The notes under the pieces were generated by a model. The model saw only the letters and a program-made list of their open reading frames with translations. It was not told the origin of the DNA and ran no database searches. Shown here in pieces: positions 12,219 to 43,391 of a stretch of 64,000 bases of DNA. This stretch comes from Candidatus Anderseniibacteriota bacterium (GTDB lineage: Bacteria; Patescibacteriota; Andersenbacteria; UBA10190), in NCBI GenBank assembly GCA_021414205.1, contig JAIOOW010000002.1, forward strand, positions 89,520 through 153,519, written 5' to 3'. A program made the position numbers and the translations under genes. Within the stretch, counting starts at the first letter, position 1. Every line of letters starts with the position of its first letter.

Positions 12219-12551
12219 GCTGATGGATGGATAATCGCCCGTAACAGGGAGGAAAGTCCGGACACCACAAAAAGGGTGACAGGTAACGCCTGCCCCCTCG
12301 CCCTAAAAAGCAAGGGAGGGATAGTGCAACAGAAACATACAGCCCCTCCTCGGAGGAGCAATGGTGAAATCGTGAGGTAAGAGCTCACGCCCTGTATAGG
12401 TAACTATACAGGGGTGAAAACCCCACCTGGTGCAACCTCAAGTCGACCCGCCTTAAAACGGGTCAGGTAGAGGGCAAAGATTCTAGTAGCGATACTAGAA
12501 CAAGACAGATGATTATCTTCAATGACAGAATCCGGCTTACAGTCCATTAGC
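12219..12551 (+). ncRNA. rnpB: RNase P RNA, bacterial type A
   Basis: GGGAGGAAAGTCCGGACACCACA, GGTAACGCCTG, GTGAAATCGTGAGGTAAGAGCTCACGC and ACAGAATCCGGCTTACAG conserved blocks; P1 GCTGATGGA pairs with TCCATTAGC. Confidence 0.9.
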
Positions 12552-12560
12552 ATATATGCA

Positions 12561-35453: not shown

Positions 35454-36044
35454 TTATCCAATACTCTTTCTGCGATGTGTCTTCTTGTCCCCACCCTTTT
35501 GATTCATTTTAATCTTACCTGATGCTAACTGCTTTTTGTCTTGAATAGTTTCAACACTGCGTTCTTCCGTCGCATCATGTTTATGTAAATGCTCCTCAGA
35601 AACCACTTGCTCTTCTTCCTGCTCCTTCTGCTGGGATTGCATAAATTCATTTGCAGAAACAGTCTTAATAGATTCAGCTTTCTTGGCTTTCTTCGTGTCT
35701 GCTTTTACAACAGCGTCGCCCTCTACTACAACCGTAACATGAGCAGTGCGCTTTAAAATGGCATGAGCCATACCCTTGGAAACAGGGTTGAATCGCTTCA
35801 TTACCAATCCTTGATTAATAAGAACGCTAGAAATTTTCAAACTGTTCTTATCAAGTTCGTGCGTATTTACAGCATTCGCAACAGCGCTTTTTACTACATG
35901 CAATAAAATTTCAGGAGCTTTGCCTGTAGCAAACATAAGCTGGCTGATTGCCCTATCTGATGCCATTCCTTGAACCAACCGTGCGTATGGACGGATTTTT
36001 CGAGGAGACATTCGAGCGTGTTTTTGTGTAGCAGAAACTTTCAT
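35454..36044 (-). CDS. rplV: Ribosomal protein L22 with ~85 aa charged C-terminal extension
   Basis: L22 core in the first ~110 aa; 196 aa total. Confidence 0.85.
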   Translation of the reverse strand: MKVSATQKHARMSPRKIRPYARLVQGMASDRAISQLMFATGKAPEILLHVVKSAVANAVNTHELDKNSLKISSVLINQGLVMKRFNPVSKGMAHAILKRTAHVTVVVEGDAVVKADTKKAKKAESIKTVSANEFMQSQQKEQEEEQVVSEEHLHKHDATEERSVETIQDKKQLASGKIKMNQKGGDKKTHRRKSIG

Positions 36045-37214: not shown

Positions 37215-37643
37215 TTATGCGTGAGATACAACAGCTTGAATATTATCAACTTTTACGTATGCCTTTTTGAACTTATTCGTAACACCTTCCGTAATCCCTC
37301 TTCGGCGAATACGAGGATGAGACAATGCGGTTCGTACAGCAAGTACATGAACGCCATATGTAGCTTCTACCACGCTCGTGATTTGAGACTTCGTAACATG
37401 CGGAAGCACTTTGAATACAGCAGTTCCTTGCGTCTGTTGCATAATGCCTTTTTCGGAAACGACTTCCGTAAGACCGATTAAGCCAGTAGATAGCGCATGA
37501 GTATCAACAGGTGCTTTCTTTTTCTTTGCAGAATCAGCAACTGATTTCAGTTTCTTGTTTCGTACGGGAGCTTTTTTAGCGTCTTTCCCGAGAATTCGTT
37601 TTGATAGTGTAAGAAGTGACATAGGGCCGGTTATATTGAGCAA
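37215..37643 (-). CDS. rplW: Ribosomal protein L23 with Lys-rich N-terminal extension
   Basis: L23 core in the C-terminal ~95 aa. Confidence 0.8.
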   Translation of the reverse strand: MLNITGPMSLLTLSKRILGKDAKKAPVRNKKLKSVADSAKKKKAPVDTHALSTGLIGLTEVVSEKGIMQQTQGTAVFKVLPHVTKSQITSVVEATYGVHVLAVRTALSHPRIRRRGITEGVTNKFKKAYVKVDNIQAVVSHA

Positions 37644-38271: not shown

Positions 38272-38880
38272 TTATTTCGATTCAATACCACGGATAGAAA
38301 CGATGCTGCCGCGCGGCCCTGGCACTGCGCCTTTCACAGCAACAAGATTGTGCTCAGCATCAACCTGCACAATTTCCAAATTCTTTACGGTTACCTGATC
38401 AGCACCCATTCGGCCTGCCATGCGTCGTCCTTTTACTACGTGCTGCGGGAATCGACCTCCGATAGAACCTGGTCGGCGAAGTACGTGTCTATGACCGTGA
38501 GATGCTGGACCTCCTGCAAAATGATGACGCTTTACCACACCCTGATTTCCTTTTCCTTTTGAAACGCCAGTTACTTCGATTGCATCGCCTTGTGCAAATT
38601 GGTCAACACCAACAGATTCGATATCTGCAGGAAATTCTCCTTTAAATTCTTCTCGTTTTGCGAACACTTCTTTATATGCGTTCGGGGTTCGCTTCTCTCC
38701 AAGTTTCGCTCCCTCTTTCTTTGGGAGTGCTAATTGGACAGCAGCGTATCCATCTTTTTCTACTGTTCTGCGAATAGTAACGGTATTAGGAAGCGCGGAA
38801 ATTAGGGTAACAGGAATAACATCTCCTTCGGGAGAGAATACCTGAGACATGCCGATTTTTCGTCCTAGAAGCGCTTTCAT
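38272..38880 (-). CDS. rplC: Ribosomal protein L3
   Basis: MKALLGRKIGMSQVF. Confidence 0.9.
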   Translation of the reverse strand: MKALLGRKIGMSQVFSPEGDVIPVTLISALPNTVTIRRTVEKDGYAAVQLALPKKEGAKLGEKRTPNAYKEVFAKREEFKGEFPADIESVGVDQFAQGDAIEVTGVSKGKGNQGVVKRHHFAGGPASHGHRHVLRRPGSIGGRFPQHVVKGRRMAGRMGADQVTVKNLEIVQVDAEHNLVAVKGAVPGPRGSIVSIRGIESK

Positions 38881-38973
38881 AATGTGTTACTCGCATGGAG
38901 CTGAAAATAAAAAAGCTTATGTAATTAAAAGCTTATAAAACGACTTTCCCACACCTAAGCACGGGTATTTGTC

Positions 38974-39002
38974 AGGATAGAACATGCTCAGAAAAAAGTC
39001 AA
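38974..39002 (-). promoter_or_regulatory. Putative rplC-operon promoter (TTGACT-N17-TATCCT) ahead of a ~90 nt leader
   Basis: Correct spacing but weak -10; leader carries a 2x AUAAGCUUUU direct repeat. Confidence 0.3.
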
Positions 39003-39052
39003 AGAAAAAAGGGGTGAATTGGGCAAATCGCTGCACCAACCACCCATTGTAC

Positions 39053-39409
39053 TCAAGAGAGCTCATCTGCATGCCCAGAGGTACCCCTAAACACGACTAC
39101 ATGGAGTATCTTACCTGGCGGATCCCGAACAAGCCAAAAGCGTTGGCCTACTAGAGGACAAGACTCTGTCATCCCCTTCCAAATCACCCACTCCTTATGT
39201 ATCTCTCGTGGATCTTGAAGCGATGCACGATACACCACTACACCACGCGCCCATAATCGATCAGCAATATAGCACTGACCACTTACAAGCTCTGTTGGCA
39301 TAATTGACTTCTGCACCCCGCGAGATCTAGGAATAACTACTACTAGAAAGAGTAGAAAAACCGGAATAAAAACCAACCAAGCAATAATCAAGAACTTAAC
39401 AATCAGCAT
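39053..39409 (-). CDS. Hypothetical small membrane-anchored protein (orphan insertion in the S10 cluster)
   Basis: ATG 39409 with AAAGGAAG RBS (the ORF track's upstream start is TTG); predicted N-terminal TM (by eye); no recognised family. Confidence 0.5.
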   Translation of the reverse strand: MLIVKFLIIAWLVFIPVFLLFLVVVIPRSRGVQKSIMPTELVSGQCYIADRLWARGVVVYRASLQDPREIHKEWVIWKGMTESCPLVGQRFWLVRDPPGKILHVVVFRGTSGHADELS

Positions 39410-39598
39410 CGCTATTCTTCCTTTCGAAATACTTATCTTTTCGGACAAGAGCCCAGAAAAGAATCAAGGGGAACGCCAATGGCCAGATCCTAAACAAAAA
39501 ATCAAGCGTATCTTCATCGATCTCCATGATCTCATACTCCCTCTTCTTGAGGATAAAACGAGCTATTTGCACATATACCCGTTGTATATTGCTATATC

Positions 39599-39627
39599 AT
39601 AATATATTAAAAAGTATTAATTGTCAA
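39599..39627 (-). promoter_or_regulatory. Sigma70-like promoter TTGACA-N17-TATTAT for the 39053-39409 gene
   Basis: Minus strand reads TTGACAattaatactttttaataTATTAT. Confidence 0.5.
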
Positions 39628-39639
39628 GTATTGATAGAT

Positions 39640-39679
39640 AAAAAAACGGCAGTCGAATCACGAAGTGAAACAACTGCCG
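39640..39679 (-). terminator. Rho-independent terminator of the 39700-40089 gene
   Basis: CGGCAGT-N19-ACTGCCG stem followed by UUUUUUU on the minus strand. Confidence 0.55.
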
Positions 39680-39699
39680 AAAAAGAGCTGTCCGCTATC

Positions 39700-40089
39700 C
39701 TACTTCACAAGAAGCCCCGTAGACGGATCTGCAAATCGCTCGAATAAACATTTCTGAGAAACCTCTTCTCCATTGGAAAGCGGAACAAAAGCCCCGGAAC
39801 CATTCGGGCAAAACTCGCGACGGATGTGTTCCGGAATTCCTTCTCGCAGTACTGCCAACCAGATTTCTCCGCCAACAGTCACAACGACAAACTTACCATT
39901 ATTATATCCGGAACTTCCAAGTTCGTTCTGTCGAACCTTTTCACCAATAACATACTCGGGAGATCCTTTGTGACCGTAGACCTGAAGGCCAGTCACGTGG
40001 ACAAAGCCGGCATGACGGAGAGTTTCTCTTTGCTCTTGCGTCGTCGGCGTTCCTTGAAAAATGGTGAATTGCTCAGTTGAAACGGACAT
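39700..40089 (-). CDS. Hypothetical soluble protein (orphan insertion in the S10 cluster)
   Basis: 129 aa; AAGGAG RBS 7 nt before ATG; own promoter and terminator; no recognised family. Confidence 0.5.
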   Translation of the reverse strand: MSVSTEQFTIFQGTPTTQEQRETLRHAGFVHVTGLQVYGHKGSPEYVIGEKVRQNELGSSGYNNGKFVVVTVGGEIWLAVLREGIPEHIRREFCPNGSGAFVPLSNGEEVSQKCLFERFADPSTGLLVK

Positions 40090-40105
40090 CTGTTACTCCT
40101 TCGCG

Positions 40106-40156
40106 CCTGCTGGCACTTCTAGCATACTTAAGCCCAAGACGGTTACCTGCTGGCAC
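40106..40156 (-). repeat. Direct repeat GUGCCAGCAGG (x2, 40 nt apart) in the 5' UTR of the 39700-40089 gene
   Basis: CCTGCTGGCAC at 40106-40116 and 40146-40156 on the plus strand, each followed by GCACTTCT-like sequence. Confidence 0.6.
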
Positions 40157-40183
40157 CCTATGCACTTCTCAAGCTCGATTGCA

Positions 40184-40211
40184 ATTATACATAATTATAT
40201 AAATTTGTCAA
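40184..40211 (-). promoter_or_regulatory. Consensus sigma70 promoter TTGACA-N16-TATAAT for the 39700-40089 gene
   Basis: Minus strand reads TTGACAaatttatataattatgTATAAT. Confidence 0.55.
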
Positions 40212-40237
40212 CTATTTATATAAAAAAATCCAGATAA

Positions 40238-40265
40238 CAAAAGACCCCTTTCTAAGGGGTCTTTT
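40238..40265 (-). terminator. Rho-independent terminator immediately after rpsJ
   Basis: AAGACCCCTT-TCTA-AGGGGTCTT perfect 10-bp stem then U-run on the minus strand. Confidence 0.65.
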
Positions 40266-40283
40266 GAGTGGCTTTTACGCCTA

Positions 40284-40628
40284 CTAGACAGTCTTCATTG
40301 ATACATCCACTCCTGCCGGTAAGTTAAGACTCATGAGAGTATCAACTGTTCGGGGTGTAGCCTGTACAATGTCGATCAATCGCTTATGTACTCGGATCTC
40401 ATATTGATCTCGTGCGTTCTTGTGAACGAACGTAGATCGGTTCACCGTGTACTTTTTCTTCGCAGTAGGAAGAGGGGTTGGACCGGCAACTTTCGCGCCG
40501 TCCCGCTCCACCGCATCCATAATCTGCTTTGCAGACTGATCGATCAACTTGTGATCGTATGCCTTCAGCTTGATCCGAATCTTCGGAACAGCTACTGGCG
40601 CTTCAGATTGTTTGGTAGCGTCGCTCAT
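40284..40628 (-). CDS. rpsJ: Ribosomal protein S10
   Basis: [15 protein letters not shown]...; start overlaps the tuf stop (TAATG). Confidence 0.9.
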
Positions 40629-41824
40629 TATTCAATGATTTTTGTAACAACTCCGGCACCAACGGTTCGTCCACCTTCTCGGATAGCGAATCGCATTCCG
40701 TCTTCCATCGCAACCTTTGAACCAAGTTCAACAGTGATTGAGATAGTGTCGCCTGGCATTACCATCTCTGTTCCTTCAGCCAAGAATACTTCTCCAGTTA
40801 CGTCCGTTGTTCGGATGTAGAACTGTGGCTTGTATCCCTTAAAGAATGGAGTGTGGCGTCCGCCTTCGTCTTTTGTAAGAACGTATACTTCAGCTTCGAA
40901 CTTCTTGTGAGGGTTGATAGAACCTGGCTTTGCAACAACCTGTCCTCGTTCAACGTCTTCTTTCTTCAAGCCTCGAAGAAGAACACCGGCATTGTCTCCA
41001 GCTCGTCCTTCATCTAATTGCTTGTTGAACATTTCGATACCGATAATTGTTGTCTTCTGCGTGTCGCGGATTCCAACGATTTCAGCTTCGTCTCCAACTT
41101 TGATAAGTCCTCGTTCGATTCGACCAGTAACCACAGTTCCTCGACCCTCAATAGAGAACACGTCCTCGATTGGAAGCAAGAATGGTTTGTCTACATCTCG
41201 AACTGGTTCTGGAATTGCTTCATCCAATGCTTGGATCAAGTCAAGAATAGGCTTAGCATCTGGATCGTTCAAATCCTTTGAAACCAATGCCTTTGTAGCA
41301 GATCCGCGAATGATTCGCGTATTAGCTCCATCGTATTCGTACTTTGTAAGCACGTCTCGGATTTCTTCCTCAACGAGGTCGATAAGTTCCGGATCATCAA
41401 CAAGGTCAACCTTGTTTAAGAATACAACGATGTTAGAAACACCTACCTGACGAGCCAAGAGAATGTGTTCTCGAGTTTGCGGCATCGGACCATCCGTTGC
41501 AGCTACTACGAGAATTGCTCCATCCATCTGAGCAGCACCGGTAATCATGTTTTTGATGTAGTCGGCGTGGCCTGGGCAGTCTACGTGTGCATAGTGTCTG
41601 TTGTCAGACTCATATTCACAGTGAGCGGTGGAAATTGTAATTCCACGAGCCTTAGATTCTGGAGATTTATCGAGATCATCGATAGACATCACCTTTTTAA
41701 CTCCGCCCTTCATGTTCATCACATGCAGGATTGCAGCAGTCGTGGTCGTCTTTCCATGGTCAACGTGACCAATGGTACCTACGTTCACGTGCGGCTTGTT
41801 TCGTACGAATTTTTCAACAGCCAT
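40628..41824 (-). CDS. tuf: Elongation factor Tu
   Basis: [24 protein letters not shown]. Confidence 0.95.
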
Positions 41825-41935
41825 AGGCTTAAAGTACTTAGAAATAAAATAATAAAATGCCCTCTGGCGTTTTATCCAGTTATTTTTCTTCCCTACAAAA
41901 AGAGCAGAAAAACAACCGCCTCAAGGTCGTATATA

Positions 41936-41964
41936 TTTGTACCAGAAGATAGTTTGCAAGTCAA
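41936..41964 (-). promoter_or_regulatory. Putative tuf promoter (TTGACT-N17-TACAAA, or TTGCAA-N18-TATATA)
   Basis: Good -35 element; -10 imperfect. Confidence 0.3.
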
Positions 41965-41966
41965 TA

Positions 41967-42003
41967 ATAAAAAAGGGCCGGATGAGTATGCACTCAAACG
42001 GCC
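41967..42003 (-). terminator. Weak hairpin plus U-tract terminator after the 42008-42802 gene
   Basis: GGCCG-N18-CGGCC stem followed by UUUUUU on the minus strand. Confidence 0.35.
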
Positions 42004-42007
42004 GCTA

Positions 42008-42802
42008 TTAATCTTTCAGGGTTACCAGATAGTCGAAGAAATCCGTGGCTACGTCCAGGAATTGTGCTGGCTCAGTCTCCAGATACTGGATGCAGAAACT
42101 ATTCACCCGGGCATCGTTTCCTGCTCGAGTCCTTTTCACAAGAAAATCCAATACCGTTTGCGCATTACTAGCCACAGCATCCCTGCTTTTTGCCAGAACG
42201 AGCCCTTTTTCAAGAAGTTTTCGCCACTCATAGACCTCGGGCAATAATGCCACCGTGGATCGCAATGTATGCGCAAGAGGGTTTGGATAGTTGGCGAGCT
42301 TACTTGCAACTTCGTTGCTCCGGTATAGCACTATCTCAGATCCATCTTCAACGAACTTTGAAAACGCGTACCCTTGCGCATCAACCTCAAGTGGCGCGGA
42401 AAGGAATTTCCACATCTCCTGCACAAGACCGTTCGCCTTGCTTTGAACAATACGCACGCGTTTTCGCATGTATTGCTGCCACACCAGATCTTGCAACGCC
42501 TGATACGCGTGTCGAAGTTCGTGACAGAGGACAAATCTCTGCACACCCTGCTGCCGAGCAAAGAAGTACTCACCCAATGCGATATGGGGAGCTGGATTCA
42601 TAGAAAACCCAGCACTACTTGTTTCAGGGTTGCAAAGCCGCGTACCAACCGTCTCCCACCCCTGAAGACTGCAAACATCCGCATATTGAAGCGGAGGAAT
42701 TGCAAGATCTTCTAAGGCCATAATGATGTCAGCATTACAAATCAAATGCATCGCATCCTGCTGCCTTCCAGGGAGAGTAACAATGCGCAAGATGTTCTGC
42801 AT
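42008..42802 (-). CDS. DUF4157-like zincin (HExxH) domain protein, orphan insertion between fusA and tuf
   Basis: GEYFFARQQGVQRFVLCHELRHAYQ resembles the DUF4157 block (Y-F-A-R ... HELxHvxQ); own promoter and AGGAG RBS. Confidence 0.5.
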   Translation of the reverse strand: MQNILRIVTLPGRQQDAMHLICNADIIMALEDLAIPPLQYADVCSLQGWETVGTRLCNPETSSAGFSMNPAPHIALGEYFFARQQGVQRFVLCHELRHAYQALQDLVWQQYMRKRVRIVQSKANGLVQEMWKFLSAPLEVDAQGYAFSKFVEDGSEIVLYRSNEVASKLANYPNPLAHTLRSTVALLPEVYEWRKLLEKGLVLAKSRDAVASNAQTVLDFLVKRTRAGNDARVNSFCIQYLETEPAQFLDVATDFFDYLVTLKD

Positions 42803-42859
42803 AGCACTCGCTCCTTTCTCATAGAAAGTGTTAACGATCAGTCAAAATAGGGAAATCAC

Positions 42860-42887
42860 ACTATACCCTATCTCCTCAAAAAGTCAA
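42860..42887 (-). promoter_or_regulatory. Sigma70-like promoter TTGACT-N16-TATAGT for the 42008-42802 gene
   Basis: Minus strand reads TTGACTttttgaggagatagggTATAGT. Confidence 0.5.
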
Positions 42888-42894
42888 TCTATGA

Positions 42895-43341
42895 TCAGTC
42901 CTGCAGATGCGGGCTTAAGTCGCCTCTATCAGATTCGAATCGGATTTTTGGTACAGGAGGAGGTGTTGGGCGAGTGTACATATTCAAATCATCATCCTCA
43001 TGCACCTCTTCTGCAATATCATCAATTTCATCCTCTTGTTCAAATTGTTCCTGCGCAGCAGTTAAGGCAATATCCCGGTTGATACGGTCAATCACATCAT
43101 CCCCGATTTCCGCATCAATATTTTTCCGAATAGCACTTGCCATCGTATCTGTATCCAAAAATAACTCTAATTGCTGTTCTTCTTGGTGCATTGCCATATG
43201 CTCTTCTTCAAGCGCTTCTCGAGATGCCAATACGAATTCCCGACCCTCATCGTCCATAAATGTAAACTTTCCGCCTAAATCCGATAACACCTGTAAAATC
43301 GGCTCTAATGTTTCTTTAATTGTTTTGGATTCTGTTTGCAT
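42895..43341 (-). CDS. Hypothetical highly acidic protein (Asp/Glu-rich), start at ATG 43341
   Basis: 148 aa; EEEHMAMHQEEQQLE, EDEIDDIAEEVHEDDD; the ORF track's upstream start is TTG. Confidence 0.45.
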   Translation of the reverse strand: MQTESKTIKETLEPILQVLSDLGGKFTFMDDEGREFVLASREALEEEHMAMHQEEQQLELFLDTDTMASAIRKNIDAEIGDDVIDRINRDIALTAAQEQFEQEDEIDDIAEEVHEDDDLNMYTRPTPPPVPKIRFESDRGDLSPHLQD

Positions 43342-43363
43342 GTATTTAAAGTATAGGGAGAAC

Positions 43364-43388
43364 AAAAAACGCGCAATGCGCGTTTTTT
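43364..43388. terminator. Bidirectional A6-CGCGC-AAT-GCGCG-T6 terminator after fusA
   Basis: Perfect palindrome with flanking A-run and T-run. Confidence 0.45.
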
Positions 43389-43391
43389 GTA

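Follow-up and report, generated by a model that had tools for sequence, protein, structure and literature searches.

The rpsJ-rplC interval of an Andersenbacteria genome: a probable slot for accessory cassettes and a gene family with a candidate leader RNA

Layout of the interval between rpsJ and rplC

We analyzed positions 38881-40283 of a 64,000-nucleotide (nt) stretch of DNA, here called the window, from Candidatus Anderseniibacteriota bacterium (assembly GCA_021414205.1, contig JAIOOW010000002.1). The region is the interval between rpsJ, which encodes ribosomal protein S10, and rplC, which encodes ribosomal protein L3, and its neighboring genes are fusA, tuf, rpsJ and rplC. It holds two open reading frames (ORFs), ORF1 and ORF2, a smaller ORF of 43 amino acids (aa) and a series of predicted transcription signals. 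All features of the locus lie on the minus strand and are given in window positions, in the direction of transcription:

40628-41824, minus: tuf (EF-Tu), its stop codon overlapping the rpsJ start (TAATG)
40284-40628, minus: rpsJ (S10), predicted last gene of the tuf transcription unit; Pfam Ribosomal_S10, expect value (E) 1e-35
40238-40266, minus: hairpin of 13 pairs with a T-run, resembling an intrinsic terminator, 18 nt past the rpsJ stop
40184-40211, minus: promoter-like site for ORF1, TTGACA-16-TATAAT, 12/12 match to consensus
40093-40177, minus: predicted structured 5' leader RNA of ORF1; 46 bits, E 3e-9 with covariance model R1
39700-40089, minus: ORF1, 129 aa, of an uncharacterized family of small alpha/beta proteins
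39640-39679, minus: terminator-like hairpin of ORF1 (CGGCAGU...ACUGCCG, 7-bp outer stem) followed by U7
39599-39627, minus: promoter-like site of the second cassette, TTGACA-17-TATTAT, 11/12 match to consensus
39396-39527, minus: small ORF of 43 aa (MEIDEDT...), hydrophobic at its core; the second cassette probably starts with this cistron
39053-39409, minus: ORF2, 118 aa, an orphan with an N-terminal transmembrane (TM) helix and then ~90 aa of no recognized fold
38881-39009, minus: conserved block with a weaker promoter-like site for rplC (TTGACT-17-TATCCT, 39002-38974) and a ~95-nt leader
38272-38880, minus: rplC (L3), Pfam Ribosomal_L3, first gene of the downstream ribosomal protein (r-protein) operon

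Judged by these signals, rpsJ is tied to tuf, physically and by prediction transcriptionally, and is set apart from rplC, from which r-protein genes continue downstream. Base 40628 belongs to both tuf and rpsJ (TAA/ATG), and the gap of 1403 bp between rpsJ and rplC contains a predicted terminator and two near-consensus promoter-like sites. GC content across the insert does not deviate from that of the surroundings, and we found no integrase, transposase or recombinase ORF and no long inverted repeats in the region. The original prediction, made from the DNA letters, had described the rpsJ-tuf overlap, a hairpin and U-run cutting off rpsJ, a promoter and terminator belonging to ORF1 and, for ORF2, a promoter and an N-terminal TM segment. 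Each of these was recovered, as was its broader point that, by sequence signals, the intervening genes come with their own promoter and terminator.

The same junctions occur in independently assembled sequence. Locus L001 (GCA_964450915.1, an independent assembly) is ~90% identical to the window over fusA-tuf-rpsJ-ORF1 and matches its gene order of fusA, two ORFs, tuf, rpsJ, ORF1, small ORFs and rplC; L002, a Logan contig from run SRR8931222, also links rpsJ to ORF1. A chimeric or mis-assembled contig, an outcome that the original prediction had named as able to overturn it, is therefore excluded.

The promoter-like sites of ORF1 (identical in L001) and of the second cassette are the two best promoter matches in 11 kb. 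Weak matches are no more frequent than expected by chance (16 found, 17.1 expected), so only the two near-perfect sites carry weight. The ORF1 terminator, which is also identical in L001, was read directly from the sequence; the automatic scanner missed it because its loop is long. Between ORF2 and the rplC promoter, the signal scan detected no terminator.

In the second cassette, the untranslated region (UTR) of the small ORF, its Shine-Dalgarno motif (SD; AGGGAG) and its opening codons ATG-GAG-ATC are common to the window and L001 at 83% identity, with divergence thereafter. The small ORF overlaps the start of ORF2 by 14 nt. ORF2 can be read from a TTG (131 aa), from an ATG (118 aa) or as called by NCBI (82 aa); it is missing from L001, where unrelated DNA replaces its body, and a search among 5.8 billion proteins returned only ORF2 itself. 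A single-sequence AlphaFold2 (AF2) model gives a confident helix at residues 2-25 (predicted local distance difference test, pLDDT, 95) and values below 50 for the remainder. BLASTP found no similarity between ORF2 and the proteins that occupy the same slot in relatives. We considered whether slot proteins might be fast-evolving positional orthologues; BLASTP among the slot proteins of the different genomes found no similarity, and the idea is unsupported. The second cassette is a lineage-specific, probably bicistronic unit that would encode small membrane proteins.

Age of the boundary and turnover of its contents

One genome per species was searched for relatives of S10, and tuf, S10 and L3 were then located at each locus. 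The 14 closest loci (L011-L024) are mostly labeled Andersenbacteria, and 13 of them reach rplC; in all 13, a gap of 230-2259 bp separates S10 from L3. The one-base overlap of tuf and rpsJ is kept in L011-L017, and strong hairpins with T-runs analogous to that of the window lie 3' of rpsJ in L011-L018, L021 and L022. In L001 the rpsJ hairpin is retained through compensatory changes in its stem. The contents of the gaps of L012-L024 are related neither to one another nor to the window. Pfam recognizes an XRE-type helix-turn-helix regulator (L012), an NYN-domain protein (L014) and an AbiEii toxin (L017) among the slot genes, and the remainder have no family.

Conservation returns immediately upstream of rplC. 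In BLASTN comparisons with eight genomes, similarity ends at the rpsJ stop codon; in the seven that continue past rpsJ it resumes at 38897-39009, and for four of these seven the point of return is 39002-39009, where the rplC promoter-like site has its -35 region. The window, L001 and L012-L018 (at least nine genomes) share a conserved stretch of ~130 nt just 5' of rplC, and the last ~140 nt before the rplC start differ from L001 at one position, better conservation than that of coding DNA. Conserved blocks within the leader are AAUACCCGUGC, which forms a hairpin, AAGCUU...AAGCUU with a U-run, and CAUGCGAGU; its folding energies are unremarkable, and in most genomes a small hairpin is followed by a U-run. 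By analogy, the rplC leader could be an attenuator, resembling the L4-responsive S10 leader of E. coli in logic and not in sequence.

The break between rpsJ and rplC, the rpsJ terminator and the rplC promoter and leader are therefore common to many species that carry different inserts, which places the boundary before the cassettes. The original prediction had read the two genes as a recent insertion that split the operon and left rplC in need of a new promoter and leader. A promoter-like site and leader do precede rplC, but both are older than the present slot genes, so that the order of events is reversed and the recent split does not hold. It had also held that the same two genes at this position in relatives, with housekeeping functions, would speak against it; the closest relative has ORF1 at the slot and not ORF2, and neither gene is recognizably housekeeping.

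Cassette turnover is visible when the window is compared with L001. The two stop being collinear within the second promoter, and L001 has an additional cassette of 326 bp, made up of a promoter, a 49-aa ORF and a terminator. At the borders of this cassette the ORF1 terminator forms a perfect direct repeat of 52 nt, and the two flanking copies of this homologous segment are 100% identical. Beyond the extra cassette, L001 and the window agree at 83% over 181 nt, which take in the terminator, promoter, UTR and SD together with the first three codons (MEI); the coding bodies are then unrelated up to the rplC promoter. Such a pattern is what recombination between copies of a terminator-promoter module leaves when a cassette is gained or lost.

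Other sequence elements were seen next to rpsJ in some loci. A complex palindromic element (GTCATCCCGG...GGGATCCACG...AGATTCCGG...CCGGAATGAC) lies just 3' of rpsJ at L012:916-1010 and L018:5318-5400 and may be a small mobile or repeated element, and heptamer-like tandem repeats (GTAACTA / GTAATCA) directly follow rpsJ at L024:3509-3620.

In more distant Patescibacteria, the rpsJ-rplC gap is mostly 86-377 bp, and many have 1-4 kb between tuf and rpsJ. Thus in L030, L046, L047, L069, L078, L089 and others, Doudnabacteria-like and other Patescibacteria, the 1-4 kb gap sits between tuf and rpsJ, not between rpsJ and rplC; one distant genome has a 3.9-kb rpsJ-rplC gap (L064:5309-9177). The variable slot seems to move among the same three junctions in different lineages. 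The fusA-tuf junction of the window is also interrupted (41825-43391, minus strand), by a very acidic 156-aa ORF (42895-43365) and a 264-aa ORF (42008-42802); a hairpin (43362-43390) follows fusA, and a TTGACT-16-TATAGT site lies at 42887-42860. Relatives of the acidic ORF occupy the same position in L001, L011, L013, L015, L020, L022 and L023 (31-92% identity), and those of the 264-aa ORF, which has weak, below-threshold hints of an HExxH-type metallopeptidase (DUF6782 / Peptidase_M91), occur in L001 and L015 only.

ORF1, its family and its leader RNA

The original prediction called both intervening genes orphans of unrecognizable family. ORF2 is an orphan, but ORF1 is not: 13 relatives, none of which has a Pfam domain, came from a word-indexed search, and the full profile search extended the family to 352 representative clusters at E <= 1e-3 (229 at E <= 1e-10). 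That no curated library recognizes either protein did hold, as neither ORF1, ORF2 nor the 43-aa ORF gave a match above family thresholds in Pfam, NCBIfam, PHROGs or PADLOC, and 0 of 99 family members matched Pfam. Members of the ORF1 family are mostly 110-150 aa long, and every record that has a name reads "hypothetical protein". All named members come from Patescibacteria lineages except P0004, which is labeled Candidatus Aenigmatarchaeota.

The AF2 model of ORF1 is confident (pLDDT 87, predicted template-modeling score 0.81). Its fold has no structural neighbor in the PDB, nor does ORF1 have a sequence relative there, and the family profile gave no match to PDB sequences. The family is marked by the sharp motifs GFVHVTGL, GGEVWL, GAFVP(L/C)SNGE and R.ADP. 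Between the window and L001, ORF1 shows 15 synonymous and 11 non-synonymous codon changes, compared with 13 and 0 in rpsJ and 19 and 1 in rplC, which indicates purifying selection on ORF1 that is looser than that on rpsJ or rplC. Elsewhere, ORF1 homologues are stand-alone genes in varied neighborhoods, among them ppa, groESL, dnaKJ, aspS/ndk, AhpC/ferritin/SOD, toxin-antitoxin genes, miaA/gatB and an island of small ORFs, and the position at the ribosomal locus is specific to this lineage.

Some family members stand in unusual settings. P0045 joins an ORF1-like domain to a C-terminal STAS match (25.8 bits), a mere hint from one 1.1-kb contig, and P0114 (656 aa) repeats the ORF1-like domain five times in tandem; the two may hint at a role in binding or regulation. 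Scattered sub-domain Pfam matches in P0114 (SpmSyn_N, Mvb12) form no significant single stretch and were set aside as noise. At L004:4100-10400, and also in L005-L007, the ORF1 homologue is part of an island, flanked by glycosyltransferase/DUF4012 genes and murJ, that has at least 10 small ORFs, none with a Pfam match. In the L004-type island, the homologue lies between similar GC-rich hairpin elements (CCTTCCCTCAC...GGGTGAGGGAAGG).

Upstream of ORF1 homologues in unrelated contexts, we found a common architecture of ~85 nt that starts from the predicted transcription start; near-consensus promoters sit just 5' of it at homologues elsewhere as well. It consists of a 9-bp helix (P1) and a conserved junction (AGUGNAUAG), a hairpin (P1a, GGUGCC-AGNA-GGUA(A)CC), a linker of 11-15 nt and a GC-rich hairpin of 4-5 bp with an AGNA cap (P2), with the SD 1-8 nt beyond. 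The leader of the window follows the same plan: P1 of 9 bp, internal hairpin P1a (GGUGCC-AGCA-GGUA(A)CC), linker and P2 (GUGCC-AGCA-GGCGC), with the SD 1 nt after P2. The ORF1 5' UTR measures ~88 nt and not the 95 nt first proposed. The repeat that had been noticed within it consists of two CCAGCAGG hairpin tips; repeated tips are thus present, but as parts of two CCAGNAGG-capped hairpins of a structured leader and not as a simple repeat. Altogether the leader motif occurs at 12 distinct loci with differing contexts, each time 5' of an ORF1-family gene.

Covariation supports the structure. In alignment A5, which holds 11 distinct leaders, hand-aligned to the structure and N-padded, and which replaced a plain MAFFT alignment, 97.7% of the cells in 20 base pairs are paired and 14 of the 20 pairs have changed on both sides. 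None of 500 shuffles did as well, and when the partners were shifted by 1-3 columns pairing fell to 48% or less. Covariance model R1, built from A5, was used to search 582 kb, among them the whole window and 40 ribosomal loci, and recovered its training copies, L002, a truncated copy (L112) and nothing else. An exact-pattern scan of metagenome contigs gave 21 matches: five precede ORF1 homologues and have the full architecture, and 16 stand alone, none of them followed by an ORF1 homologue; those of the 16 that were searched match R1 at the core hairpin only. Against 4227 Rfam families, at E <= 10 over 38700-40400, we obtained only sub-threshold, terminator-driven matches. Judged by its covariation, the ORF1 leader is a conserved structured RNA, one without an Rfam match. 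It most likely controls initiation of ORF1 translation.

The leader also accounts for anomalies in public annotation: the N-terminal extensions of P0004, P0008 and P0018 (MPAGNR..., VPVGGRP... and VPAGNRP...) are translated leader RNA, and the public gene calls of these three proteins start too early. Both hairpin tips in the window, at 40143-40152 and 40101-40110, read GUGCCAGCAG, which we take to be identical to the universally conserved positions 515-524 of 16S rRNA, in the region of the 530 loop. Mimicry of this loop was considered and dropped because the loop base varies across the family (AGNA), the C of the window not being conserved.

Readings of the locus and known parallels

Our preferred explanation, which we consider probable, is that the boundary between the str and S10 clusters has been re-partitioned and that the old spacer serves as a hotspot for accessory cassettes, among them ORF1 with its structured leader. 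In Andersenbacteria the two clusters would be divided differently from those of E. coli, with rpsJ translationally coupled to tuf and closing that unit at an intrinsic terminator, and with rplC at the head of a separate operon that has a conserved promoter and leader of its own. Positions 39010-40283, which lie between these operons, would be the hotspot, in which self-contained cassettes of promoter, gene and terminator may be gained, lost and swapped over short evolutionary times, at least sometimes by recombination at the repeated terminator-promoter module. One present cassette would be ORF1 travelling with its own leader, and the other the 43-aa ORF with ORF2. What happens at the leader is more tentative. 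The leader has two hairpins that share a cap, and P2 lies directly against the SD; this suggests a bound factor that blocks the ribosome-binding site, and the leader may, with less than even confidence, be a translational operator in which such a factor occludes that site. ORF1 is the obvious candidate binder because gene and leader are inherited together; such a factor, perhaps ORF1, would occupy the two CCAGNAGG-capped hairpins and lie immediately beside the SD. Like all protein functions at the locus, the leader's regulatory role is one that we infer.

Several observations weigh against this explanation or its parts. Pair counts in alignment A5 are inflated, as it was made by hand to fit the structure, and RNAalifold on the unsupervised MAFFT alignment found P1a alone, with GC/AU/UA covariation; it recovered nothing more because P1 and P2 were mis-registered there. 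The leader is not more stable than shuffled sequence (z = 0.17), its SD is not visibly sequestered, and two family members, L008 and the distant L115, lack the motif. With an isoelectric point of 6.1, near neutral, ORF1 is atypical of an RNA-binding autoregulator. ORF2 and the 43-aa ORF have no homologues, and they are taken as coding from the length of the ORFs, the placement of the SD and a TM prediction. Promoter and terminator activity at the locus is predicted from consensus matches only, and transcription may read through from tuf-rpsJ into rplC.

Two alternatives to parts of this explanation we regard as unlikely. In the first, the leader would be a riboswitch whose P1, junction and P1a form an aptamer for a small molecule or ion on which ORF1 acts, ligand binding then altering translation or mRNA stability. 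Its covariation-backed domain, its highly conserved unpaired nucleotides (AGUGNAUAG, GUAAYCG) and its place at the mRNA 5' end of one gene family in unrelated contexts would suit this, as would the non-basic character of ORF1, which weakens the idea of autoregulation. However, there is no recognizable expression platform, with no terminator and an SD that is unpaired in the consensus; the motif is small and narrowly distributed (a dozen examples) and suggests no ligand, and twin hairpins with the same CCAGNAGG cap resemble protein operators more. In the second, which we also doubt, ORF2, the 43-aa ORF or both would not be genes, and the second promoter would drive a noncoding RNA or feed rplC. 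Neither ORF has a homologue, the body of ORF2 gives way to unrelated DNA in L001, AF2 is uninformative past the TM helix, NCBI annotates only the 82-aa version and no terminator was detected between ORF2 and the rplC promoter. Yet a frame of 118-131 codons is open on the sense strand, SD-like motifs are properly spaced before both ATGs, the overlap of the two ORFs suits coupling, and L001 and other relatives also have small TM-protein ORFs in the slot.

That the leader serves only to stabilize or process the mRNA, as a 5' stem-loop that keeps RNases off and regulates nothing specifically, strikes us as rather improbable. Stem-loops at the 5' terminus are known to stabilize bacterial mRNAs, and P1 lies within a few nt of the predicted transcription start at every locus with a recognizable promoter, but such an element would not need conserved loop and junction sequences or a second hairpin at a fixed place by the SD. 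Finally, a mobile or horizontally acquired two-gene cassette that recently broke an intact rpsJ-rplC operon, with rplC evolving a new promoter afterwards, is very unlikely: ORF1 and ORF2 at the slot are confined to this genome and its sister L001, ORF1 homologues lie elsewhere in other genomes and the cassettes carry their own signals, but clade-wide synteny, in which the gap, the rpsJ terminator and the rplC promoter and leader recur with different inserts, largely refutes it, and the unchanged GC content and the lack of integrase, transposase and long inverted repeats in the region also count against it.

The preferred explanation, a re-partitioned boundary with a cassette hotspot, has partial parallels in known systems. 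In cyanobacteria, plastids and archaea, rps10 follows an elongation-factor gene at the end of a str-type cluster, apart from the L3 block; adjacency of rpsJ and rplC is therefore not universal. The window resembles this arrangement in that tuf directly precedes rpsJ, a hairpin follows rpsJ and L3-L4-L23-L2 form a separate unit. It differs in the one-base overlap of tuf and rpsJ, in an rplC block that is only 1.4 kb downstream on the same strand and in a spacer that is a variable accessory slot. A conserved 3' inverted repeat has been described for plastid rps10 (PMC2410131). The E. coli-type S10 operon runs rpsJ-rplC-rplD-... behind an L4-responsive leader (Fu et al. 2013, PMC3616713). As there, a leader with a small hairpin and then a U-run precedes the first gene of the operon, here rplC. 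Unlike there, rpsJ lies outside the operon, overlapping tuf and separated by the 1403-bp gap instead of forming one unit with rplC, and the leader precedes rplC and not rpsJ. This rplC leader has no sequence or Rfam similarity to that of E. coli; no Rfam leader was matched in 38700-40400, and the TAATG overlap leaves no room for an L4-binding attenuator leader upstream of rpsJ.

Fixed flanks, contents that vary among close relatives and direct repeats at cassette borders also recall the accessory and defense hotspots found between core genes. Unlike the usual hotspots, this one lies inside the most conserved gene cluster of bacteria, its cassettes are tiny (0.3-1 kb) with their own near-consensus promoter and terminator, and no recombinase was seen in it. 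We rejected an integron-like cassette array, as there is no integrase, the cassettes carry promoters and the only repeat is a terminator. The ORF1 leader is comparable to autoregulatory leaders and riboswitches in its covarying helices supported by compensatory changes, its conserved unpaired bases, its consistent 5' UTR position between promoter and SD and its inheritance with one gene family, and it is unlike known cis-regulatory leaders in matching 0 of 4227 Rfam families and in having no obvious expression platform.

Three other features of the window were seen outside the interval. By operon position, the genes at 35454-36044 and 37215-37643 (both minus strand) encode L22 (196 aa) with a long charged C-terminal extension and L23 (142 aa) with a long N-terminal extension, as judged against usual bacterial lengths. 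At 12219-12555 (plus strand) lies a class A bacterial RNase P RNA (230 bits), the sole Rfam family of the window at gathering threshold.

In the searchable literature on Patescibacteria we found nothing on the S10 operon, nor on riboswitches with covariation, and the leader RNA and ORF1 family appear to be undescribed, with Rfam, Pfam, NCBIfam and PDB all negative. What is unusual here is a break in cis, class-wide in a Patescibacteria lineage, with a spacer that has become hypervariable and takes up mini-cassettes equipped with promoters. It is common to regard the rpsJ-rplC junction as fixed, an assumption on which concatenated ribosomal-protein markers and synteny-based binning depend; a whole Patescibacteria class would have re-cut the str/S10 boundary and left a fast-turnover slot that includes toxin-like and membrane proteins. 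It is quite possible, if short of an even chance, that the leader is a new class of cis-regulatory RNA, so far found only with ORF1-family genes, which would act as the operator of ORF1 (a new RNA-binding fold) or as a riboswitch of unknown ligand, in an accessory-gene slot with strong promoters in the middle of a ribosomal super-operon. The locus thereby offers two leads: an uncharacterized protein family of ~350 representative clusters whose fold is predicted with confidence and lacks a relative in the PDB, and a compact, covariation-backed RNA motif always found with the closest ORF1 members. In vitro tests of both are possible with no culture of the organism, which belongs to a group that offers few experimental handles.

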